A stretch of DNA of 64,000 nucleotides, taken from the sequence record OK428535.1; one strand, given 5' to 3'. The stretch comes from Escherichia phage vB_EcoM_Lh1B. Positions 3,963 through 16,349 of the stretch are shown here, one piece after another; positions within the stretch are counted from its first letter, which is position 1; each line of letters starts with the position of its first letter. Both the position numbers and the translations under genes were made by a program. Under the pieces are notes generated by a model that was not told the origin of the DNA, searched no databases, and worked only from the letters and a program-made list of their open reading frames with translations.

Positions 3963-6131
3963 ATGTCCTACACTCCTGATTTAGTGGCGACCNTGATTCG
4001 GTCGCTCAACCGTAAAAACGCGGTCGCCAAAGCAGTAGACCCCGCTAACGTTCGCCTGGTGTCCGTGGAGCATCGTGACGAAAAAACCCTAGACGTCACA
4101 CTGACAGGGGGTCCGGGGTATTCAAGTTACGGTCAAATTACGGCCCAAGTGACGAAGCAAAATATTGCTGATTATTTCGCTAAGGTTAAGTTGGATGCCA
4201 TTCCCACCTGTGCATCCATCCACGAGCTGTTGCCGCATTTAGACACTCTACTAGGGATTACCTTTTTAACCGACGACTTTGAAGACCTGCCTATCACTTG
4301 GACAAACAATGCTGCGCGCATCACGTTCCAGGCGAAACAGACAAGTCTTATCTGGTACGGCAGCCAAACGCTAGATGTGATAAACGGTGACGTGGATATC
4401 AACACTGTCTACACTGTTACCAATATCATTCTCACGCTAAAGGCTGCGAATAAACAGCAGTGGATTAACTTCTACTCTAATGCAGCCAAACGGATCGTGG
4501 ATCTTGATAAAGTCGATGTCAGCGCCCCGATGTCCCCGGAGGATATAGGCCAAACCTCTGCGTATAACAGCGTCGTGGCTTTGACCGCTAGACCGGGGAG
4601 CGGGATGTTTGGAACGAAGTATGTGTTCTTCTCACGTAACAAACTCGAGACATATGCAGGCAAAACCACATACGTCCCGGATGATTTCACCGGTAGCCTG
4701 CACGATGCTCTGGCCATCGAGACACTCGGCATTCGGAGCGTTTTTGATGTAAACGAAATTGCTCCTGTAGAGAACCTGGCAGGCGAGTGGCCGAGACAAG
4801 TGCAATTGGCACCCGTAGAGGGTTCGTACAAAGTCATGGGCAGCGCCACGTTGAATGTGGCACGCTATCAAGATAACGAGCAAACCCTTAACCTGAACTA
4901 CACAACTACGTCGCAAGTTTCGGACAGCTACTGGGCCACGACGTTGACCAACCATGCGGCGTGCGGGCGTTTGTTTNTTAACGTGACCGTAGANGNGGGG
5001 GNTTTNGTTTTTCGCNCCAACAACCTAAAACCGACGTTCGTTATCGACGAATTGCCGCAAATTGGCGAGGTGGTTTGGAACTTCGTTAACCGGGGAACCA
5101 TTCTTGGTCGNGGTGGTTCGGGTATGGTCTATTCTCTGCCTGCGAACACATCAGCAGACGGAGCTGACGCAATCCACATTACCGATACCTTCCGCGGCAA
5201 AGTCACCATCGAAAACTACGGCACCATCGCCGGAGGTGGGGGTGGGGGCGACTACTATGCGTTTACCACCNCCAAGNTCGGTGGAGCTGGTGGTGCGCCT
5301 CTCGGGCCAGGCGCGGCGGTACCCAGCGGCACCAATAACCGTAACGGCTTAGCTGGGTCCCGTGACAAAGGCGGTGCTACCCAGTTAGTCGTCGCACAAT
5401 TTACCGGCTACCAGAGTCGCNACTATGGCGGTCCTGGTGGCGATTGGGGCCAGCCGGGACGATATACAGCGTTCGAGCAATGGAACACCCCGGCTACCGG
5501 CTCGCCGGTCTATGTCTACGGTCGTGAAGACGGGATGTCATGGACTCGCCCTGGGATGGCAGGCGAAGCCGTCGGTGGGAATAAAAGTATCGTCAACNGG
5601 GTATCCNTCGNAACGGGGAAACCNAATTTCACCNACGAGTACCAANAGTTCCNCNNCNACCNCNCAGATTTAGATNCCAACCGATTGGCCAGTGCGGATG
5701 GGATAGATAAAGTCACCGACCCAACCAAACCTGTAGTTGTGGAGTTCTTAGGTACGATTATTTCAGGTACGCTNTTCAAAAAGCAAAACATACCCGGCGG
5801 TTTGGTGGGAACACCATACGGCGATGCTGTAGCCAACTTACCGAGCACCACATTGTTTGGTATCATGGCACACTGTGTATCGGAGTTTGATATTGTGCAC
5901 GACACTTGGCGTTACAACCGTGCGGTAATGTTCACCCTAAAACCCNCNCCTACCGGGGCGATTGGCCTCGCTGTGGAACGCAACCGGGTGAAATCGGCTA
6001 CCAGTAGTACACCGGTGGAGAGGTTCTATGTCGATCGCTTCGTGTATTACGATGCGTATCTCGGTAAAATGATGGAATGTAATCCGTATACCAAATCTGC
6101 CCCTAAACCGTGGGTGCGGCCAACGATATGA
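3963..6131 (+). CDS. putative tail fibre protein with Gly-rich repeats
   Basis: 722-aa ORF with poly-Gly/GGxGG stretches (GGGGGGDYY..GGAGGAPLGPGA) typical of fibre shafts; shares its C-terminal module with CDS 2629-3948; contains n-runs. Confidence 0.65.
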   Translation: MSYTPDLVATXIRSLNRKNAVAKAVDPANVRLVSVEHRDEKTLDVTLTGGPGYSSYGQITAQVTKQNIADYFAKVKLDAIPTCASIHELLPHLDTLLGITFLTDDFEDLPITWTNNAARITFQAKQTSLIWYGSQTLDVINGDVDINTVYTVTNIILTLKAANKQQWINFYSNAAKRIVDLDKVDVSAPMSPEDIGQTSAYNSVVALTARPGSGMFGTKYVFFSRNKLETYAGKTTYVPDDFTGSLHDALAIETLGIRSVFDVNEIAPVENLAGEWPRQVQLAPVEGSYKVMGSATLNVARYQDNEQTLNLNYTTTSQVSDSYWATTLTNHAACGRLFXNVTVXXGXXVFRXNNLKPTFVIDELPQIGEVVWNFVNRGTILGXGGSGMVYSLPANTSADGADAIHITDTFRGKVTIENYGTIAGGGGGGDYYAFTTXKXGGAGGAPLGPGAAVPSGTNNRNGLAGSRDKGGATQLVVAQFTGYQSRXYGGPGGDWGQPGRYTAFEQWNTPATGSPVYVYGREDGMSWTRPGMAGEAVGGNKSIVNXVSXXTGKXNFTXEYQXFXXXXXDLDXNRLASADGIDKVTDPTKPVVVEFLGTIISGTXFKKQNIPGGLVGTPYGDAVANLPSTTLFGIMAHCVSEFDIVHDTWRYNRAVMFTLKPXPTGAIGLAVERNRVKSATSSTPVERFYVDRFVYYDAYLGKMMECNPYTKSAPKPWVRPTI

Positions 6132-6190
6132 TTATCGTAATTTAACGNGGAACTTGNCGGGTTTAAANCCNGAANANAACCCNNNCCCNN

Positions 6191-6218
6191 TTCCCCNCGG
6201 GGAAGNGGNTTTNTTTTT
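6191..6218 (+). terminator. probable terminator (low-quality sequence)
   Basis: ttcccc-n-cggggaa hairpin followed by a T-run, inside an n-rich patch. Confidence 0.3.
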
Positions 6219-6836
6219 ATGACCCTATCAACTCAGGAGGTTATCGTGGTCGATCGTTGGAGTAAAGAGGGCATTATTCGTGCCAAAGTAAACATCGAAG
6301 CCGGTTACGTTAATAACCCGAAAGATTTGGGCAAAGCAACGAACCGCGGTGTCACCGAACTCACTGCGCGAGAATATGGCTATAAAGGGGATATGCGTGA
6401 CCTGAGCTTAGAAATCGCGTTAGACATTTACAACAAGCTCTGGTGGCAGCGGATGCGTTTAGACCAGATTATGAAAATGAATGTCCTGCTAGCTGACCGA
6501 ATGTTTGATTTCGGCATCAACGCAGGACGCGGTAACTGTATCAAGTCCCTGCAACGTATTCTGAACGTATTAAACCGCCAGGGTAAACTATACGATGATA
6601 TCGATGCCGATGGTGGTATCGGGCCACGTACGTTAACAGCGTTAGAAGGCTTCATCAAAGCCCGTGGGGAAGAGGGCCTGAATCGACTGATGTTCGCTTT
6701 AACCTGTCATCAGGTTGCGTATTACACGGAAATCAGTGAAGGGCGTGAGGATAACGAAGAGTTTACTTACGGCTGGTATGGCCGCGTCTATCAGGAAATG
6801 CCAGACTACGTGGCTAAGTTGGGGATGTGCAAATGA
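6219..6836 (+). CDS. endolysin: GH108-type N-acetylmuramidase with PG_binding_3 domain
   Basis: N-terminal EAGYVNNPKDLGKATNRGVTE matches the GH108 EGGYvnDP..GG.T..GIT signature; C-terminal DADGGIGPRTLTAL matches the PG_binding_3 DG.iGp.T..AL motif; no signal peptide or TM segment. Confidence 0.8.
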   Translation: MTLSTQEVIVVDRWSKEGIIRAKVNIEAGYVNNPKDLGKATNRGVTELTAREYGYKGDMRDLSLEIALDIYNKLWWQRMRLDQIMKMNVLLADRMFDFGINAGRGNCIKSLQRILNVLNRQGKLYDDIDADGGIGPRTLTALEGFIKARGEEGLNRLMFALTCHQVAYYTEISEGREDNEEFTYGWYGRVYQEMPDYVAKLGMCK

Positions 6837-7024
6837 AACAGAATTGGTTTGCTGCCTTAATGAAAGCTATCTGGCGCGCCCTTGTTTTTGCCNNAAGGAG
6901 AAAACGAAATGACCCACCGTCCAACTCCGCCTAAGTTCCCCGAAGTACAAACCGTTCCGGAAACGTATTACGATTCTGGGTTCTTCAAACTATTACGCGC
7001 GATCTTCTGTCGGAGGGTAAAGCC

Positions 7025-7117
7025 ATGCAATACGACAACGACGACTGGCCGAAAGGCTTAATGCCCATTTTACTGGGATTAATGGTCCTCACGATGCTCG
7101 TGCGTTATATGACGTGA
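7025..7117 (+). CDS. tiny single-TM peptide (30 aa)
   Basis: ATG preceded by GGAGGG; MQYDNDDWPKGLMPILLGLMVLTMLVRYMT has one hydrophobic helix; below the ORF-track length cut-off. Confidence 0.3.
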   Translation: MQYDNDDWPKGLMPILLGLMVLTMLVRYMT

Positions 7118-7124
7118 GGTCAGT

Positions 7125-7766
7125 ATGGAAGCACTTAAGTATAAGTTGTTAGAGAAGCCGTGGTTTATCCTCACGGATGATTTCCATTTCGAGTTTACGT
7201 TGCGCAGCCTCTATCGTGAGCACACCGGAATGGATGCGATGGTAGCATTAACAGGTGTACACCCGGATACTCCGTTATGGGTAACGGTACCGAAAGGATT
7301 TGTAACGGACCTGGCAAGCATTCCAGAAGCGNTNCNNCCTATCCTNCNNCCGGANGGGCCTTGGGCCGCNGCCNCTTGTGTGCATGATTTGTTTTACCAG
7401 AAACGTTCATCGGGGGTCTTGTACCCTGACACTGTCGAAGGTAATCTATCTCGTGCATGTGACAAAACATTCGCTGACCTGATGTTCTTACGTATCATGG
7501 AGGCATTAGGCGTTGACACCTTTATTCGTAAGTCCTTCTACCATGCCGTTCACGAGTTTGGTTGGCCGTCCTATGTAGACGATAACTCTAAGGTGGTTTA
7601 TAGCCGGCCGGTAGAAAAGACGTTGTCCTATAATCGCAACTACCTGTTCTTTAGAACGTCGCGTACGTTAGCGATTCCTGAACACGAACGTGTTGACATT
7701 ACTAATGGGCAACCGGTAAACGTGCAGTATTTGAATATCAAACGTGCGTTCCTGACTACCCCTTAA
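7125..7766 (+). CDS. hypothetical protein (DUF1353-like motif?)
   Basis: 213-aa ORF with GAGG RBS; motif VTDLASIP...CVHDLFY resembles the DUF1353 signature from memory. Confidence 0.55.
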   Translation: MEALKYKLLEKPWFILTDDFHFEFTLRSLYREHTGMDAMVALTGVHPDTPLWVTVPKGFVTDLASIPEAXXPIXXPXGPWAXAXCVHDLFYQKRSSGVLYPDTVEGNLSRACDKTFADLMFLRIMEALGVDTFIRKSFYHAVHEFGWPSYVDDNSKVVYSRPVEKTLSYNRNYLFFRTSRTLAIPEHERVDITNGQPVNVQYLNIKRAFLTTP

Positions 7767-7775
7767 GGAGAGAAA

Positions 7776-8291
7776 ATGTTTCATCCGAATCCTGCCAACT
7801 TCGCGTTAAAAGAGTTGATGCCGCAGGAGTACATCGCGAAATATGGTGAAGGTGCTATTCGTTTCCTTAATCCGTTACTGCTAATCTCGCTCCAACAGAT
7901 TCGTAATCGTTTTGGGCGGATGGTGATTTTAACCAGTTCCCAGCAACAGCGTAGTCTGCGTACCCTGCAGTTCTTTATTAATCAAGAGAAACCAAAGGGT
8001 GGAGATTGGCAAACTCGTGCAAACAAACTGTACGCCGAATCAGGCAGTATGCATAAATTCGGTAATGCGTTTGATGCAACAATGCTTGATACACCGTTGC
8101 AGAAAGTACACGACTATATTGCCGCGAACCCTAACGAGTTTCCGTTTATTCACTTTATCGAGTGCGATATTACCTGGCTGCATGTTGACGTACGCAACCA
8201 GCCTGATATCACCTTCTGGTCACCGACACGTGGTACCGTTAAAGTGGTTAAGCAACAACCCATCGATTGGAGCAAGCTAGTTAAAATCTAA
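7776..8291 (+). CDS. peptidase M15-family (Peptidase_M15_3-like) cell-wall peptidase
   Basis: AAGGAG RBS; motifs SMHKFGNAFDAT and WLHVDVRN match the Zn-binding S.H..G.A.D / HVDVR signature of M15 D-Ala-D-Ala / L-Ala-D-Glu peptidases. Confidence 0.6.
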   Translation: MFHPNPANFALKELMPQEYIAKYGEGAIRFLNPLLLISLQQIRNRFGRMVILTSSQQQRSLRTLQFFINQEKPKGGDWQTRANKLYAESGSMHKFGNAFDATMLDTPLQKVHDYIAANPNEFPFIHFIECDITWLHVDVRNQPDITFWSPTRGTVKVVKQQPIDWSKLVKI

Positions 8292-8416: not shown

Positions 8417-8908
8417 TTATTTATTTTCTTCTAACGGAACAATCGTAATCGGAGTAGGAACTTCACCGATAAACCCGCTGCTGCAGCGAAAGAATGTCAT
8501 CCCTTTACCTTCGCCGGTATACGGGTTCACATCCGAAAAAGAATAAGTGGGGCTATCGTTTACGGTTTTATTAATACGGTAATAACGCTCACCTGTGGTG
8601 GTGTTAACATTCCCGTCGATTTTGCCGATCACGTCTTTAAACATCATCGGTGACTCTAGTTTGCCACCGTCCCACGCTGCTACCCAGTTTGCACCCACAT
8701 CCATTACTGTTACTGACCGCGGCATCATTTGTAGGTTGTCCAGTACCGGACGGTAGTCTACAAACTTCTCCTGCGTCCCTGTGCATGTATAAATCACCAA
8801 GTCGTGATTCTTTACTGGTGTGGCGCTAAATTGTCCTATGTTGCTTGGCGACTGAACACAACCGGCCAACAGGTTTATAATCGCGAATACGATAAATAGA
8901 CGTTTCAT
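8417..8908 (-). CDS. lipoprotein (possible superinfection-exclusion or receptor-masking protein)
   Basis: Signal peptide with lipobox MKRLFIVFAIINLLAGC; AGGA RBS. Confidence 0.65.
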   Translation of the reverse strand: MKRLFIVFAIINLLAGCVQSPSNIGQFSATPVKNHDLVIYTCTGTQEKFVDYRPVLDNLQMMPRSVTVMDVGANWVAAWDGGKLESPMMFKDVIGKIDGNVNTTTGERYYRINKTVNDSPTYSFSDVNPYTGEGKGMTFFRCSSGFIGEVPTPITIVPLEENK

Positions 8909-9620: not shown

Positions 9621-9644
9621 CCTACCTCCCTTCGGGGAGGTAGG
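9621..9644. terminator. bidirectional rho-independent terminator
   Basis: CCTACCTCCC-ttcg-GGGAGGTAGG hairpin with TTCG tetraloop and A/T-rich flanks, between convergent genes. Confidence 0.6.
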
Positions 9645-9661: not shown

Positions 9662-10333
9662 TTACATGCCGAGTGACTCGGACAATGTTTTTAATCCGGT
9701 GTAATCGCGCTTTTCAGCTAACTCACGGATTTGGCGTTTGTTATCTGCCATTGCTGAGTGCAACACTTGGTCACGTGCAACAATAGCGGCCAGCAACGCT
9801 TTACATTGGGCTACTGTAAACGGACTGTGCTTAGTATTCAGCGTATCGAGCCAGTATTCTGGTGCGGTATCTGCCTGAATGTATTGACCGAGGATGGTAC
9901 GCGACGATTCATCGGCTTGAAAGTGACTACCTTCAAACTCGATATAACCATGGCGCTCATCTTCGTAGCGGTGGTCGAGTTCCAACAGCATCTTCTGCAC
10001 GTCTTCGTAAATGTAACGTGCGGTAGATTTCAGATTCCCGCGAATTTCGTCGAGGTCAATCTCCAGCACATTAGCAATAAACTCTTTCGTGCGTTTCAAT
10101 GTGAAGTTAGCTTCAATCTCCGACATCTCATACAGCTTCATGCGTGCCAGGGCTTCTTTATCAGACATCCCTTCGATGAGATGGTAATGGAGTAATGCAC
10201 AAAATCCGGTACGACCCTGATCCTGCGCACCGATTCGTTCCATGAAATTACCGTGACGATCAATCGGCAAATCACGCTGGAAATAACNGGCGCGGATCTC
10301 TTCGTTCGTTAAGCTTTTGTCAGTAACAGACAT
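9662..10333 (-). CDS. hypothetical protein, last gene of the rSAM/Cys-peptide operon
   Basis: 223-aa ORF with GAGGAGG RBS; overlaps the upstream gene by 25 nt. Confidence 0.55.
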   Translation of the reverse strand: MSVTDKSLTNEEIRAXYFQRDLPIDRHGNFMERIGAQDQGRTGFCALLHYHLIEGMSDKEALARMKLYEMSEIEANFTLKRTKEFIANVLEIDLDEIRGNLKSTARYIYEDVQKMLLELDHRYEDERHGYIEFEGSHFQADESSRTILGQYIQADTAPEYWLDTLNTKHSPFTVAQCKALLAAIVARDQVLHSAMADNKRQIRELAEKRDYTGLKTLSESLGM

Positions 10334-10875
10334 TCGTCCTCCTCAATCAGGCCAAGTTCTAACAACAAACCGAAGTCCAGCATCTGGAAGTCCTGATCGA
10401 GGTTACCGGCCCACAACAGAGAAATGTTGTGTTGCTCTTCTTCTTCCAACTGCGGGAGCAGGTGTTCTTCGAAGATTTGACGTTCTGTGTAATAAGCGTC
10501 AACCGGGTTATTGGAGCGTAAGTTACGAATACGCATCCGCGGGAATGACAAGCCCAATGCCACTAAACTTTCAGGACTGGCTTCATCAATAGAGTGACGT
10601 AGCAGTTCGATTTTGTGGCGTGGGTATGCAAGCAGTCGCTTCTCAAAGCCAGGGTTGCGCTTTTCGATTTCCGCGACAGACTCGTGTCCTTTCTCAACGC
10701 AGTAGACCGGGATCATCACATTCAGCCCGTATTTAATCAACAGGCTTTGGATTTCATCAGTGAAGTCTTCCCCTGCCACAATTGCGTGCACATTGTACAG
10801 CTTGCTTTTGCGCAGGAAGCGATCGACCAAGTGCAGTTTACGCTTCGTAAAATTGTGAATCAGTATTGACTTCAT
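10309..10875 (-). CDS. hypothetical protein (start uncertain)
   Basis: ORF 10309-10953; most plausible start is the ATG at 10875 (MKSILIHNF...) with GGAG RBS; overlaps the rSAM/SPASM gene. Confidence 0.5.
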   Translation of the reverse strand: MKSILIHNFTKRKLHLVDRFLRKSKLYNVHAIVAGEDFTDEIQSLLIKYGLNVMIPVYCVEKGHESVAEIEKRNPGFEKRLLAYPRHKIELLRHSIDEASPESLVALGLSFPRMRIRNLRSNNPVDAYYTERQIFEEHLLPQLEEEEQHNISLLWAGNLDQDFQMLDFGLLLELGLIEEDECLLLTKA

Positions 10876-12166
10876 TCTGGGCTCCGTTTTGTAATTTTTC
10901 TGCTTCGGCACGTTGGCGTACACAACGTGAACAATAGCACATGGATTTATCATGCAAATCTGATGCGCGAGTCGTACCAGTTTTCTGATACCAATATTCC
11001 GCCGCCATCAGCTTCGCAGTAGTCCAACCACACTGACGACGCTCGGCGTGATACGCTTTACGGTCTTCCAGTGTACCTTCACCGTTTTCGTACGATGCTG
11101 CTGCGCAGCTACCGCAGCTGTGTTTCATCGGACACCCTAAACAAGTTTCTGGGTAGTTGGTGTACTGCGTTTGAATCTCTTCTAACAGCTTACCGCCGTC
11201 CAGGCTCACAAACTCACGACCGACCAGTTCCGCTACAGCAGAGCGGGAAGTTACCGTGGACATGAAACGGTTACAACCGTAAATCTTGCGATCAAAGCCG
11301 AGACAGGTCATGTGCGTCAACGTACCGCAGTACGGTTTCAGGCGTTCTGGGTCGAGACGAACAGAGTCGTCATGTAAGAGTTTGTCACGCCAATCCGGGT
11401 CCCAAGTTGCCATAAAGTTCAGGCCATCCGGGATGATGTGCGTAATCGTGTTACGCGGGTTGGTGTGCAGACCCTTCTCAATCCAGTAGTCCATCACGTC
11501 CATCATCTGGTTCGCGATATCCAACGCCATATGGCGCGGCAGGATATCTTCGTACGTCACGTTACCAGAAATGGTACCACCGCCGGACATGTCAATTAAC
11601 GATTTCATGCTGGCGGCATAGTGCGGCAATGTATCGATCGTAAACGTCGCCTTTACGCCCAGTTCAGCGATGCCAACACTCTTCAGATAATTGTAACCGC
11701 GTACCGCAGCTTCGTACGACCCTTCACGCGTCGTGGTAAAGATACGATATTTGTCATGGACTTCAGGTAAACCATCGATGGAGACCCCAATAGACAGTTT
11801 GTCTTTCCAGCGCTCGATAATTTCTTTGTTCAGCGGACGGTCCAGAAGCGTACCGTTCGTGGAGATACTGAACATATACGGGCGATTGTGTTCTGCGCAT
11901 AACTTCTCTGCGGTTTCAAAGGCCGCCAAAAGAAGTTTAGGCTGCATGAACGGCTCACCACCGATGATATCGATGATGACTTCAACGTTCGGGATATCTT
12001 TATCACGCTCGAAACAAGCGTGGATAAAATCAATCACGTCTGCTACTTTGTTGTTACGCGGATATTTACGCTCGTAGCAGTATTCGCAGTCCAGGTTACA
12101 TGACAAGTTAGTCACAACCTGATACGTGCGTGGTGTGTACTGGATTTGCTGTTCGTTATTACTCAT
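10838..12166 (-). CDS. radical SAM enzyme with SPASM-type C-terminal Cys cluster (anSME/peptide-maturase-like)
   Basis: CNLDCEYC (Cx3Cx2C) at residues 23-30; C-terminal CLGCPMKHSCGSC plus further Cys residues typical of SPASM auxiliary Fe-S domains. Confidence 0.8.
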   Translation of the reverse strand: MSNNEQQIQYTPRTYQVVTNLSCNLDCEYCYERKYPRNNKVADVIDFIHACFERDKDIPNVEVIIDIIGGEPFMQPKLLLAAFETAEKLCAEHNRPYMFSISTNGTLLDRPLNKEIIERWKDKLSIGVSIDGLPEVHDKYRIFTTTREGSYEAAVRGYNYLKSVGIAELGVKATFTIDTLPHYAASMKSLIDMSGGGTISGNVTYEDILPRHMALDIANQMMDVMDYWIEKGLHTNPRNTITHIIPDGLNFMATWDPDWRDKLLHDDSVRLDPERLKPYCGTLTHMTCLGFDRKIYGCNRFMSTVTSRSAVAELVGREFVSLDGGKLLEEIQTQYTNYPETCLGCPMKHSCGSCAAASYENGEGTLEDRKAYHAERRQCGWTTAKLMAAEYWYQKTGTTRASDLHDKSMCYCSRCVRQRAEAEKLQNGAQNEVNTDSQFYEA

Positions 12167-13073
12167 TGTTCGCCGCCCGTTTACGCTTAGCAGAAATTAC
12201 ACGGTTGATGTAGTTATACGCATCAACGCCGATAGAACGCGCCAGGCGATTACAGCCGACTTCCAATATCTCTGGGGCGTTCTGAATTTGCTCCTGCGTA
12301 CCGTCGGCGTTAAGCCACAGCACTTCACTGCACGTGTTGCACTCGGTATCGAACATTTTACTGATCGCAAGCCCACATTCAGAATCGTTCTGCATGTTAA
12401 GGCGTTCGATATTGTCGAGTATTTTCCAATACCCGTACATGAAGTTCATGACGTGGTCTGGCGATAACGGTTTCGGCATCATCGCATCAAACAACAACGA
12501 CACACCACCTGGACGGTAATGATAGATTGCTCGGTGCAGCTCGATGAAATCTTCGTACCAGCGTTTATCGCCTAACTGGTCACGCGTCATCACACCCCAG
12601 GTGTAATAATTGTCCAGCTCGTACAGCACTTCCAGCGCTTCGTGATTACCACCGTTTACAAAGTTCATAAACGGACGTTCCGACTTCTTGTAGCCGTCAA
12701 TGGACACAAAGATAAGGTCGAACTGTTTCAGCAACGGCAGATGTGATTTACGCATCTTTAAACCGTTGGTGTACATGTGATGACGGAGGTTCGGATGAGA
12801 CTCCTTCAACTCGTTCACGAAGTCTTCAATCTTACGCTGCGCTAACAGCGGCTCACCGCCCGTCCAATGAATCTCACCGATATCCGGATTCTTCTCTAAA
12901 ATCGAGAGAATCTCTTCACGTTGAAACTCACGAGAAGTATCTTCTCTATCCATGTAATAAGCCCCTCCACAGAAGCTACAGTCTAAGTTACACTTAGAAG
13001 TTGCGACAACCGACAGAATTGACGGTTTGTCGTACAGTTCAGACGAGATCCTGGATTCTACTTGATCTGTCAT
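12159..13073 (-). CDS. radical SAM enzyme (second, shorter)
   Basis: CNLDCSFC Cx3Cx2C motif near the N-terminus; C-terminal ECNTCSE...GCN partial Cys cluster; stop overlaps the start of the downstream rSAM gene by 8 nt. Confidence 0.75.
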   Translation of the reverse strand: MTDQVESRISSELYDKPSILSVVATSKCNLDCSFCGGAYYMDREDTSREFQREEILSILEKNPDIGEIHWTGGEPLLAQRKIEDFVNELKESHPNLRHHMYTNGLKMRKSHLPLLKQFDLIFVSIDGYKKSERPFMNFVNGGNHEALEVLYELDNYYTWGVMTRDQLGDKRWYEDFIELHRAIYHYRPGGVSLLFDAMMPKPLSPDHVMNFMYGYWKILDNIERLNMQNDSECGLAISKMFDTECNTCSEVLWLNADGTQEQIQNAPEILEVGCNRLARSIGVDAYNYINRVISAKRKRAANNE

Positions 13074-13094: not shown

Positions 13095-13982
13095 TTAAAT
13101 ATAATCAATGGCGAATAAAGGATCTTCGTCTACGTTAGCGCCAGGCACCAGTAACATCGGGTCGTGATAGGCAGCTAAAATTTTGTTCAGGTCGGCGTGT
13201 CTTTCGTTCAGACGTTTCAAATCGGCCAACGTTACCGAACGACCACGAATCTCAGAAACAGCTTCTGCTTCTTCTTTCGTTAAATCCACCTTCGTTAAGA
13301 GGAAACTTACCAGCTTACTCAAATCCGCTTCTGTCGCCGGGTAATCCCCATATCGGGTTTGAACCAGGTGTTGCATCCACGGCTTACGAATACGTTTGGT
13401 GATTTCAAAATCGTCAGTCAGCGCATACCAGACAGAACGCTTTTTATCCCACACGAACTTATAGCTATACGCCATCATGTCCGCTAAACGGGTGATGCCG
13501 AGTTCTTTATACCCCTCGATATCGATGTATGGTTCGGTGTCGAAATACGTTTCCGTATCGGCAGGTACCAGTACAAAGTAGTAAGGGAACGAGCCCAGAT
13601 AGTCCGGACTCCACCAACGGCGCGCCATCGGTTTTGCTTCAAGTTCGTCAAACGGTGTAAACATCAGTTCTAAATCGACGCTGTTGTTCAAAATCCCTTC
13701 GCTGAAGAAATACTTACCGTCGACTAACACGCCACGAGAGTTACCATCGCCGTTAAAGATAACGATGGCCTCTGCAACCATATCACGGATCTTAAACGTA
13801 TTTTCTACGGTGTAGTTCTTCTTGTCGGTCAAGAAGCGACCACGAACCTTTGGCCACTCACCAGGAATCTGTGCAATCAGTCTGACTTTGTCAGCAAGGT
13901 GCGCACGCACTGAATCTGGGGAAGATAGATGCAGCGGGTGGTTGAATGTGGTTTTATACGCAAGATGCAAATCGTTTTTCAT
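13095..13982 (-). CDS. hypothetical protein co-operonic with rSAM enzymes
   Basis: 295-aa ORF with GGAG RBS immediately after the peptide genes; no motif recognised. Confidence 0.55.
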   Translation of the reverse strand: MKNDLHLAYKTTFNHPLHLSSPDSVRAHLADKVRLIAQIPGEWPKVRGRFLTDKKNYTVENTFKIRDMVAEAIVIFNGDGNSRGVLVDGKYFFSEGILNNSVDLELMFTPFDELEAKPMARRWWSPDYLGSFPYYFVLVPADTETYFDTEPYIDIEGYKELGITRLADMMAYSYKFVWDKKRSVWYALTDDFEITKRIRKPWMQHLVQTRYGDYPATEADLSKLVSFLLTKVDLTKEEAEAVSEIRGRSVTLADLKRLNERHADLNKILAAYHDPMLLVPGANVDEDPLFAIDYI

Positions 13983-14004: not shown

Positions 14005-14211
14005 TTATCGATTCCCCGCTCCACGGCTACAGCTTCCGCTGCAGGACCAGCTACACCCACCATTACAGTTATAGTGAGAAAGCGGTAAGCCAGCCAGGTT
14101 ATTTGTGGTCGACACGGTGCCCTGGTTAGCGATATAGTTGTTTGCCTGTGCGGTTGTAATGTAACCTTCTACCGTAACGAGACGGTTTCGAATAGTCTTG
14201 AGACTGATCAT
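14005..14211 (-). CDS. Cys-rich peptide, short paralog (leader + truncated core)
   Basis: 68 aa; leader MISLKTIRNRL... and core SHYNCNGGCSWSCSGSC are paralogous to the two larger peptides; GGAGG RBS. Confidence 0.55.
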   Translation of the reverse strand: MISLKTIRNRLVTVEGYITTAQANNYIANQGTVSTTNNLAGLPLSHYNCNGGCSWSCSGSCSRGAGNR

Positions 14212-14226
14212 ATAAGCCTCCGTCAG

Positions 14227-14631
14227 TTAGGAGTTAGGACCTGAACAACCACCAGAACACGCGCCGGAGCAGTTTGCGGAACAGGATTTGCCACAGCCGC
14301 CAGAGCAGTTACCAGTACACGTTCCGCTACAACCACCAGAACATGAAGAGCTGCAACCCGTACAGCTGCTGCTACAGCCCGATACACAGTTTGCGGAACA
14401 AGTCGACCCACAACCACCCGTAGCAGACCCAGTACACCCGCCAGAACAACTCGAGCAACTAAAAGAGCATGTGCCACCACAGTCATAGTGCGAACGGCCT
14501 TGACCTGCGAACAAGTCGGCGTTATTCGTAGCTTTATTGCGAATGTAGTTTTGCACATTCGTGGTGTTCTTTAAAGCGTTTGCATCGATCGTGTTTAATC
14601 GGTTATTCAGTTCTTTTAATCCAATTGCCAT
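14227..14631 (-). CDS. Cys/Gly/Ser-rich repeat peptide (candidate rSAM substrate)
   Basis: 134 aa; about 45-aa helical leader (MAIGLKELNNRLNTIDANALKN...) followed by an about 85-aa core of CSGGCSG-type repeats with more than 20 Cys. Confidence 0.65.
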   Translation of the reverse strand: MAIGLKELNNRLNTIDANALKNTTNVQNYIRNKATNNADLFAGQGRSHYDCGGTCSFSCSSCSGGCTGSATGGCGSTCSANCVSGCSSSCTGCSSSCSGGCSGTCTGNCSGGCGKSCSANCSGACSGGCSGPNS

Positions 14632-14641
14632 TTAATCCCCC

Positions 14642-15034
14642 TTAGCGACCTGAACAGCCGCCGGNGCAGGCCCCGGNGCAGTTTGCGGAANAGNAGCCNC
14701 CNCAACCNNCTGAAAAGTTACCGGTACAGCTACTACTGCAACCACCAGAACAACCAGAGCAACCAGAACAGTTACCGCCACACGTCGAAGAACAGCTACC
14801 GATACAAGAAGCAGAACAGCTTCCTGAACAGCTCGAACAGCCATGCGAGCAACCGTTAGAGCANGTCCAAGAACATGTCCCGCCGCAATCTAGCTGTGCT
14901 TTCGTCCAACCCCCAAATCGGTCTGCTGCATTATGGGCTTTAGAGGCCACTTGCGCCTCGATGCGGGGGCCTGTCGCCATGTTAGCTTCGACNATCTGGA
15001 CGCGGTTTCTGACGTCTTTAATAGATATCGCCAT
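14642..15034 (-). CDS. Cys/Gly/Ser-rich repeat peptide (candidate rSAM substrate)
   Basis: 130 aa; same leader/core architecture (..LDCGGTCSW.CSNGCSHGCSSCSGSC..); AAGGAAG RBS. Confidence 0.65.
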   Translation of the reverse strand: MAISIKDVRNRVQXVEANMATGPRIEAQVASKAHNAADRFGGWTKAQLDCGGTCSWXCSNGCSHGCSSCSGSCSASCIGSCSSTCGGNCSGCSGCSGGCSSSCTGNFSXGXXGXXSANCXGACXGGCSGR

Positions 15035-15099: not shown

Positions 15100-16302
15100 T
15101 TACTTAGTACCCGCTTCAGCTTGAACATCGTCGCGCGAGGTGAGGCTGTTGTTGACGTGAACAGCAGCCTGCACAACACCTCCATACTGTTTATGGAGGT
15201 AATTCGGGTGTGGGTTATCCGCAGCCGCATGGTTCGCCAGATTCTGGTTTGCCTGCGAAATTGCGTTGGTGTTGTTTATAACCTGAGTTTTAAGACTGTT
15301 GATTTGTCCTTGCAGGTTATCAATTTGCTGTTGGAAGTCTTTGCCCTGATTCTCAAGATCCGTGACGCGCTGATTTGTTTCATTCAGTGCAGACTGAAGA
15401 TCGTTAACCATCTTCTGTAATTGCAACACCAGAGAATTAAGGTTAGCTAATGCTAACGACATTTTCTGGTAATTTTGAGCAACCACGTTAAGCTGGTCGT
15501 TCCACGCGGCTAACGAAGCCACAATTGCATCGATGCGTTGCCCCAACGCCGTGTCTGCTNCTCTTAAGTCGCCGATATCGTTGATAGTGGCGTCAATGGC
15601 AGTCTGTACACTTTGAATCAGGGCACGAATCTCCGTCTCCGTCAGGCCATTAACCTGATGAATGTCGAGATTGTGTACGTTACCTTCGGCGTTGATGTGT
15701 GTATTTAAGGCGTCGAGGAAGTCGTTTCTCAGACCGTCCAGAATACCTTTAATTTCTTCCAGCTGTACTGCAGAGCCGGAGTTAATCGCATCTTTAATCC
15801 CCGCGAGTACGGTAATGATATACTCAAAACCGTAGATATCGCCAAGGTCTTTATACGTCGGGGCGGACGGGAACGTATCGGGTACGTTTCGAAGATCCTT
15901 GAAGTCCACCACACGGTCTTCAATTTTCAGCGACGCAATCGCTTGTCGGATGCCTTCGACGTTCGCGGACTGAAAACCACCAACGACTTGCGCAGAGACT
16001 TCGATATCAGTAGGAATGGCCGAGTTAGTTACCACCACACCCATGACCACTTCGCGGTTCTTGGTCATTTTCTGATATGCAGTATGTGCAAAAATCAGTT
16101 CGTAGTCTGTGCCGCGTTTGTACGGGTAGACACCTGGTTTATTCGCAGCTGCCAAGCGGAAGGTATCCGCGTAGAAAGCTCCGTCAGGAAAAGCAAAAGC
16201 CCGGTTAACTTTACCAGAACCTAACGTAATACGCCGTGTAACGGCGTTCGACGTTAATGTCCCGGTAAGGTCGAGCGGGTACTGATGAATGATTTCGGCC
16301 AT
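15100..16302 (-). CDS. short fibre-like protein: N-terminal tail-attachment domain plus coiled coil
   Basis: ATG at 16302 with AAGGAG RBS; N-terminal PxGxFY...RGTDYEL motif shared with the three large fibre proteins; long heptad-like Q/N/L-rich segment. Confidence 0.65.
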   Translation of the reverse strand: MAEIIHQYPLDLTGTLTSNAVTRRITLGSGKVNRAFAFPDGAFYADTFRLAAANKPGVYPYKRGTDYELIFAHTAYQKMTKNREVVMGVVVTNSAIPTDIEVSAQVVGGFQSANVEGIRQAIASLKIEDRVVDFKDLRNVPDTFPSAPTYKDLGDIYGFEYIITVLAGIKDAINSGSAVQLEEIKGILDGLRNDFLDALNTHINAEGNVHNLDIHQVNGLTETEIRALIQSVQTAIDATINDIGDLRXADTALGQRIDAIVASLAAWNDQLNVVAQNYQKMSLALANLNSLVLQLQKMVNDLQSALNETNQRVTDLENQGKDFQQQIDNLQGQINSLKTQVINNTNAISQANQNLANHAAADNPHPNYLHKQYGGVVQAAVHVNNSLTSRDDVQAEAGTK

Positions 16303-16349
16303 TGCCAAACTCCTTTGATTGGGGCTTCCTTGCCCCATAGCGCTATCTG

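Follow-up and report, generated by a model that had tools for sequence, protein, structure and literature searches.

What do the accessory genes beside a pair of phage radical S-adenosylmethionine (rSAM) enzymes contribute? The question is raised by Escherichia phage vB_EcoM_Lh1B (sequence record OK428535.1), in a stretch of 64,000 nucleotides (hereafter the window) where two overlapping genes (positions 9662-10875) follow the rSAM genes and a third precedes them. An original prediction, made from the sequence alone, had placed all three in a cluster for a ribosomally synthesized and post-translationally modified peptide (RiPP). With 97-99% identity, the window belongs with the SPN3US-like jumbo phages of Salmonella (genus Seoulvirus), and the SPN3US numbering (gp159-gp170) is applied to it here. 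The answer proposed, with a probability of roughly 0.55, is that gp161, gp162 and gp165 act, without being part of the virion, as maturation and assembly factors for a module whose rSAM enzymes, gp164 and gp163, modify proteins with Cys-X3 arrays, the modification being most likely cross-linking. As the arrays are homologous to those of tail-fibre-like carriers and gp161 contains a DUF4376 domain, the operon looks like a virion-fibre maturation module and not like a natural-product cluster. The genes of the module are as follows.

9662-10333, minus strand: gp161-like gene, 223 amino acids (aa); N-terminal domain of about 100 aa and C-terminal DUF4376 (residues 121-205)
10309-10875, minus strand: gp162-like gene, 188 aa; partial (beta/alpha) TIM barrel like the radical-SAM core, without CxxxCxxC
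10838-12166, minus strand: gp163, rSAM enzyme of SPASM type, 442 aa; Pfam Radical_SAM, 9.6e-15
12159-13073, minus strand: gp164, second, shorter rSAM enzyme, 304 aa; Pfam Radical_SAM, 9.8e-16
13095-13982, minus strand: gp165-like gene, 295 aa, no cysteines; phrog_8030, 3e-150
14005-14211, minus strand: pepC, short Cys-X3 array protein, 68 aa, 4 Cys; phrog_6085, 2.8e-25; junction motif LAGLPLSHYNC...CSWSC
14227-14631, minus strand: pepB, Cys-X3 array protein, 134 aa, 20 Cys; phrog_6085, 1.8e-41; weak TIGR04114 and TIGR04117 matches
14642-15034, minus strand: pepA, Cys-X3 array protein, 130 aa, 18 Cys; phrog_6085, 2.6e-35; kept in 17 of 17 loci of the SPN3US clade

The three accessory genes are present as minus-strand open reading frames (ORFs) where they had been predicted (9662-10333, 223 aa; 10309-10875; 13095-13982, 295 aa), and the first two do overlap, sharing 25 nucleotides (nt); the length of about 189 aa given for the second is to be corrected to 188 aa. 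The mechanical ORF of gp162 extends to 10953 (214 aa), and its start was set by homologue alignments and phrog_7988 at the ATG at 10875, preceded by GGAG. This start lies 38 nt before the gp163 stop, while the gp161 start, preceded by the Shine-Dalgarno sequence GAGGAG, lies 25 nt before the gp162 stop. Each protein matches one PHROG family (gp161, phrog_8169, 7e-101; gp162, phrog_7988, 8e-87; gp165, phrog_8030, as listed above), each occurs in 72 phage records with an identical genus breakdown, and the frames stay intact in orthologues of as little as 32-40% identity. Families of their own, equal distribution and divergence without frame disruption establish them as genuine conserved genes and not chance ORFs. 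According to the published mass spectrometry of SPN3US virions, gp160, gp167 and gp168-170 are present and none of gp161-gp166 is (PMC5694885, Supplementary Table 1), which together with the conservation marks gp161, gp162 and gp165 as real and non-structural. All three are acidic (isoelectric point 5.3-5.6) and show no transmembrane-like segment (maximum 19-residue hydropathy at most 1.35). Searches against PDB sequences, with single sequences or profiles, gave nothing significant for any of them, pairwise profile comparisons among the accessory proteins were all negative, and PADLOC indicated no defence-system relationship beyond a generic rSAM-viperin similarity.

Some published records of these genes need to be read with care. 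The text of PMC5694885 counts gp161 in head paralogue family B, an assignment rejected here as a typo for gp160, since the table lists gp160 (18.5 kDa) and not gp161; the mismatch between text and table, probably typographical, could mislead the annotation of gp161. In the Salmonella phage records SPFM1, 6-10, 12, 14, 15 and 20, the gp161-gp165 region matches only in several short pieces, with annotated proteins truncated or frame-shifted, for which a problem of assembly quality is more likely than gene loss. Ambiguous bases are scattered over about 4900-5700 and 14650-14850 of the window and yield X residues in gp155, pepA and gp161 (residue 16); none of the examined reading frames is broken by them.

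The molecular roles proposed below we infer from directly established synteny, co-occurrence, predicted folds and domain matches. With gp165 as its founder, a previously undescribed family occurs alongside rSAM enzymes in all loci examined. Among 1.84 billion representative proteins, a profile search returned only 49 relatives, the distant ones being 230-390 aa long, sharing the C-terminal half with the motif RIADYGRLIxFLLSKVxLTxEE and matching phrog_8030 only. All 16 independent loci examined beyond the SPN3US clade (L020, L023-L032, L034, L036-L038 and L040) have the gp165-like gene next to an rSAM gene, and in 14 a Cys-X3 array protein is encoded upstream, at most a few genes away; the remaining two contigs are too short to tell. 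In the proposed module, gp165 is the third component and the one that defines the system; usually, it is encoded beside the substrate gene and the gp164-type enzyme. The predicted structure is confident (pLDDT, predicted local distance difference test, 89.5; alignment of 37 homologues), with a beta-rich N-terminal and a helical C-terminal part; the fold has no structural match, and the Pfam, NCBIfam and PDB sequence searches were empty. Neither the PF02413 profile (Tfa/Caudo_TAP) nor structural similarity to Mu Tfa was found. Its invariable position, the lack of a catalytic signature and of cysteines, and the contrast between a conserved C-terminal and a variable N-terminal half argue for an adaptor: most likely, gp165 is a substrate chaperone or adaptor that holds the array or presents it to the enzymes. 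This role would resemble that of the RiPP recognition element (RRE) or PqqD, likewise a small non-catalytic substrate-delivery protein encoded beside an rSAM enzyme; gp165 has no sequence or fold similarity to these, the analogy being purely functional.

A few of the distant gp165 loci carry additional genes. The Synergistaceae contig L026, from a metagenome-assembled genome (MAG), encodes two tandem gp165-family paralogues (5773-6669 and 6635-7399). In the human-gut phage contig L020 (5715-6890, 6997-7818 and 1113-1820; minus strand), the module includes a third rSAM gene, after which a Cys-rich protein matching thrombospondin type-1 repeats is encoded; close by, a fibre-like protein of 235 aa has CNCNCNCNN as its C-terminal sequence. 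In L032, an intermediate lineage, a gene with a match to Acb2/Tad1-hairpin (an anti-defence sponge family) is located just upstream of the array proteins (7633-7854).

The nature of the putative substrates links the module to fibres. Over 46 arrays in related loci, the spacing of cysteines is 4 residues in 601 intervals and 3 in 97, and the repeat unit is C-[S/T]-G-[G/S/T]. Two forms of array occur: three small stand-alone proteins in the SPN3US-like phages, and the C-terminus of tail-fibre-matching proteins in several others. The stand-alone proteins have an N-terminal region of about 50 residues that is conserved across the clade, often within unannotated DNA. The carriers with fused arrays are 221-482 aa long, and their N-termini match tail-fibre PHROGs in L024, L028, L029, L030 and L031 (E 2e-10 to 2e-40) and, weakly, in L027 (2e-4). 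At the C-terminus, 6 of the 9 carriers scanned match phrog_6085, the family of the small proteins of the window, which themselves match phrog_6085 alone and no tail-fibre family. The match in the L027 carrier spans profile positions 5-121 of 129, so the 'peptides' of the window are homologous to a whole C-terminal fibre module and not to the repeat alone. The motif NAxxLxGxxxS[Y/F]xxC..CSW precedes the array in the stand-alone proteins as well as in the fibres of L026 and L027, and FDGSGNxxIxxGC precedes it in other fused fibres; we take both to resemble common tail-fibre sequence motifs. As to gene neighbourhood, the module either has fibre and baseplate genes around it or precedes lysis genes. 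In L026, L028 and L031 it has an endolysin-type gene on its downstream side, in L028 as the very next gene. In small phages, fibre and fibre-assembly genes are usually placed ahead of endolysin-type genes.

The array genes of the SPN3US clade have fared badly in annotation. In the SPN3US records, the arrays at 14005-15034 (minus strand) are mis-annotated, 'gp166' having been called in another, Val/Ala-rich frame (14204-14539 in L001 and L002), and many related records have nothing annotated over the array ORFs. Because the frame is wrong or the annotation missing, proteomics based on such annotations could not detect the array proteins.

The best NCBIfam match of gp163 is TIGR04115, a radical SAM peptide maturase family with CXXX-repeat targets (3e-36; 125.6 bits against a cutoff of 350), followed by the ranthipeptide maturase PapB (1e-32). 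TIGR04115 is also the top match for 6 of 7 distant gp163-like enzymes scanned, PapB scoring slightly higher in L025. As the distant phage enzymes score 118-188 bits, all under the curated cutoff of 350, the phage enzymes form a sister group of TIGR04115 and are not members of it. The complete TIGR04115/TIGR04114 system is likewise below threshold in the operon, with gp163 at 125.6 bits against 350 and pepB at 16.3 bits against a repeat cutoff of 20 bits. The phage module resembles the TIGR04115/TIGR04114/TIGR04117 system in that a SPASM-type rSAM enzyme is encoded beside long Cys-X3 array proteins; it differs in having a second rSAM enzyme and the gp165 family, and in the tail-fibre-like character of its targets. 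To our knowledge, the chemistry of TIGR04115 is uncharacterised. Cys-rich repetitive substrates are shared with the PapB/freyrasin ranthipeptide, SCIFF and sactipeptide maturases, among which PapB is usually the second-best NCBIfam match. Unlike the PapB/freyrasin substrates, the phage arrays lack an Asp acceptor repeat, having the unit C-[S/T]-G-[G/S/T], and belong to proteins of 60-480 aa and not to short peptides. The likely cross-linking maturase is gp163, and pepA and pepB are likely rSAM substrates; by analogy, the product would likely be a series of thioether cross-links.

The second enzyme, gp164, is related to the N-terminal half of gp163 (hhalign 96%). In L027 (7554-9572) and L029 (7423-9483), gp164-like and gp163-like parts are fused in proteins of 672 and 686 aa, respectively, a 'Rosetta stone' arrangement which suggests that the two enzymes work together. 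An extra gp164-like rSAM gene is found between the first and second array proteins in two jumbo-phage contigs (L007, 6393-7295; L008, 6392-7294).

With a pLDDT of 90.5, the structure of gp162 is predicted confidently: a partial TIM barrel of parallel beta/alpha type, similar to the core of radical-SAM enzymes. The fold alone is similar: there is neither CxxxCxxC nor a match to Radical_SAM or any other Pfam family, so that gp162 does not belong to the superfamily by these signs, and of its two cysteines only C182 is invariant. Descent from gp163 or gp164 as a degenerate paralogue was considered and rejected, the hhalign probability being below 1% against either. Homologues beyond the SPN3US clade were found in L032, L034 and L037 (profile E 2e-15 to 2e-19; hhalign 98.5%), and in every case the gene is directly 3' of a gp163-like gene. 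This holds even for the rearranged L037, where the order gp163-like, gp162-like, array proteins, gp165-like, gp164-like suggests that gp163 pairs with gp162 and gp165 with gp164. Most likely, gp162 acts as a non-catalytic partner of gp163. Pseudo-radical-SAM proteins (e.g., NCBIfam TIGR04347, pseudo-SAM/SPASM) offer a parallel, as gp162 has an rSAM-core-like fold without cluster cysteines and is encoded beside an active rSAM enzyme gene; it differs from them in having no detectable sequence relationship to any rSAM family, a length of only 188 aa and no SPASM part. A 158-aa ORF in the corresponding position of L038 is not detectably related to gp162.

The statement that none of the accessory proteins has a recognisable motif holds for gp165 and gp162, which have no Pfam match, and fails for gp161, whose residues 121-205 match DUF4376 (PF14301; 38.8 bits against a cutoff of 25, 1.4e-9). 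The domain is above threshold in 13 of 13 gp161 orthologues (best E 8.2e-12). Alteromonas phage V22 and a Campylobacter prophage were shown to need proteins with DUF4376, described as having a variable N-terminus, for functional receptor-binding fibres, and V22 gp27 is not part of the final fibre complex (PMC7289586, PMC7882524). With the DUF4376 chaperones (V22 gp27, A5 gp9 and the downstream gene of Campylobacter CJIE1), gp161 shares a variable N-terminus joined to a conserved C-terminal DUF4376; as V22 gp27 is absent from the mature fibre complex, so gp161 was undetected in the SPN3US virion. In contrast to these chaperones, gp161 ends an rSAM operon and does not directly follow a conventional fibre gene, and its N-terminal domain may occur alone beside rSAM genes in one lineage. 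This domain of about 100 aa is probably operon-specific. In L034, the gp162-like gene is immediately followed by an ORF of 93 aa that can be aligned to about 90 N-terminal residues of gp161, the motif HY-x-[LV]-IEGMS included, and that lacks DUF4376; the match is moderate (hmmsearch 1.2e-5 in a small ORF set; hhalign E 3.5e-4). The stand-alone ORF suggests that gp161 may combine, by fusion, a domain linked to rSAM operons and a fibre-chaperone domain of general type. Most likely, gp161 is a fibre assembly chaperone that helps to oligomerise or attach matured fibres. The 70-aa ORF after the gp162-like gene of L032 is not detectably related to gp161.

Taken as steps, the proposed process would begin with array proteins translated together with their helpers. 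Binding the junction or the array, gp165 would present it to gp164 and gp163, standing in for the RRE of RiPP systems with an unrelated fold. The two enzymes would install multiple cross-links, probably thioethers by analogy with the nearest characterised relatives, with gp162 supporting gp163 as a non-catalytic subunit. Finally, gp161 might help the completed mini-fibres to oligomerise or to become attached, perhaps to gp167, a fibre-like coiled-coil protein encoded upstream of the arrays, and the helpers would be left behind after fibre maturation.

How well do other explanations account for the locus? The idea that the genes are accessory to the rSAM operon is borne out, with the gp165 family adjoining rSAM genes in all independent loci, gp162 always after a gp163-type gene and gp161 last before the terminator. 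The rest of the original prediction leads to a rival reading as a classical RiPP cluster, in which one would have the Cys-X3 proteins as leader-plus-core precursors of a diffusible or intracellular peptide, and gp165, gp162 and gp161 serving leader recognition, processing or export and immunity. Stand-alone substrates with about 50 conserved N-terminal residues and a repetitive core would suit such a cluster, as would the closeness of gp163 to RiPP maturases and the co-occurrence of gp162 with stand-alone substrates only. Moreover, gp163 and gp164 match maturase profiles from about residue 20, which leaves no room for an N-terminal RRE and makes a separate recognition protein plausible. However, searches of Pfam, NCBIfam, PHROG and PDB sequences gave no RRE/PqqD, peptidase or transporter signal, ABC transporters included; gp165, gp162 and gp161 show no transmembrane-like segments and have neither a profile match to RRE/PqqD nor its winged-helix fold of three strands and three helices. 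The supposed precursor peptides are homologous to C-terminal Cys-X3 arrays, with a common junction motif, of 221-482 aa proteins, several of which match tail-fibre PHROGs; the module lies among fibre or baseplate genes or ahead of lysis genes, and gp161 has a fibre-chaperone domain. The RiPP framing and the roles derived from it are therefore considered improbable, the most so of the alternatives weighed here. Homology to unrelated phage structural proteins, which the original prediction had named as speaking against itself, was found in part: fibre-chaperone homology is there, and chaperones are related to the apparent role of the operon.

The adaptor role of gp165 competes with that of a third catalytic enzyme performing a further modification step. 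For such an enzyme speak the co-occurrence of gp165 with the rSAM enzymes in every examined locus, several invariant charged or aromatic residues (R47, R49, K90, Y91, D168, Y174, K175, W178, R197, R199, K200 and W202) and a confidently predicted globular fold; yet there is no match to a known catalytic fold or cofactor-binding motif, and cysteines are absent. Moreover, distant members conserve the C-terminal half alone, while the N-terminal half varies along with the substrates, a pattern more fitting for an adaptor than for an active site. We regard a catalytic gp165 as unlikely, if less so than the other alternatives. Slightly less credible is the view that gp162 and gp161 are unrelated to rSAM chemistry and are ordinary assembly factors for the gp167-gp170 fibre and baseplate proteins on a common transcript. 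Within the SPN3US clade, co-occurrence is inseparable from shared ancestry; DUF4376 proteins serve conventional fibres, and homologues of gp162 and gp161 were undetected in loci with fused fibres. Against this stand the gp162 homologues that stay after a gp163-like gene in three lineages without detectable gp167, even after rearrangement, the conserved overlaps of gp162 with gp163 and gp161, and the probable homologue of the gp161 N-terminal domain after the gp162-like gene of L034.

Several points weigh against the proposed maturation module itself. Modification of the array proteins and their presence in virions are both putative, and the SPN3US proteome is uninformative on them, as the ORFs are mis-annotated or unannotated and the arrays almost devoid of tryptic sites. 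No homologue of gp162 or gp161 was detected in the fibre-fused loci, and hence they are not core components; gp162 may be needed for stand-alone substrates only. Outside the clade, the N-terminal domain of gp161 has a weak match (hhalign probability 37%, E 3.5e-4), and gp161, unlike classical fibre chaperones, closes a block begun by the fibre-like gp167 and the array proteins, five genes from the nearest fibre-like gene. Finally, gp165 could equally be an enzyme of an unfamiliar type, its fold giving no clue.

Some components of the proposed maturation module are of kinds already known, namely radical SAM maturases with CXXX-repeat targets and DUF4376 chaperones. Three aspects are new: the joint occurrence of these kinds, as a fibre-maturation module, in widely differing phages; the gp165 family without a structural match; and the cofactor-less gp162 barrel. 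A literature search returned no description of an rSAM fibre-maturation module, of the gp165 family or of the gp162 barrel. A broader generalization, which can only be offered tentatively, is that in many phages the fibre tips or small accessory fibres are Cys-X3 arrays turned into covalently cross-linked rods by rSAM enzymes, with gp165 as a chaperone of unseen fold replacing the RRE and gp162 as a pseudo-rSAM subunit. If true, the peptide chemistry of radical-SAM enzymes, which has been studied to date in natural products of bacteria, would be linked to the building of phage host-recognition organelles, a previously undescribed post-translational modification of virion proteins would be added, and cross-linked, reduction-resistant fibre tips would be relevant to the engineering of phage stability and host range. 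The gene set (array protein, gp165-type partner and one or more rSAM enzymes) is compact and testable, and occurs in prophage-like contigs of 40 kb, in contigs of bacterial MAGs and in nucleus-forming jumbo phages of 240 kb. As a new protein family and fold, gp165 has a role that is directly testable in the genetically tractable SPN3US. The analysis also flags array genes that are mis-called or omitted in SPN3US annotations and are likely missed by standard tryptic proteomics.

The module is bounded by the following elements of the window.

9621-9644: bidirectional intrinsic terminator between convergent gp160 (plus strand) and gp161 (minus strand); 10-bp stem with 7 GC pairs, T-runs on both strands
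15100-16338, minus strand: gp167, coiled-coil protein of 412 aa; phrog_2163, 8.8e-109; detected in SPN3US virions; first gene of the conserved block
minus-strand block, upstream of gp167: gp168, baseplate/fibre paralogue of 1742 aa

The terminator, a strong one, directly follows gp161, the last gene before it, and is the 3' end of the module. In 17 jumbo-phage loci of the SPN3US clade, the order gp167-pepA-pepB-pepC-gp165-gp164-gp163-gp162-gp161 is invariant and the overlaps are kept; gp167, always upstream of the array proteins in these loci, is a candidate partner for them. Downstream of gp161, copies of gp160, an abundant head protein of paralogue family B, vary beside the module in number (1-3), distance and strand (L003-L019). 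The ORF of SPN3US gp159 (163 aa; 8417-8908, minus strand), located between the module and the head and lysis genes, starts with MKRLFIVFAIINLLAGC, which has the look of a signal peptide of a lipoprotein, lipobox cysteine included.

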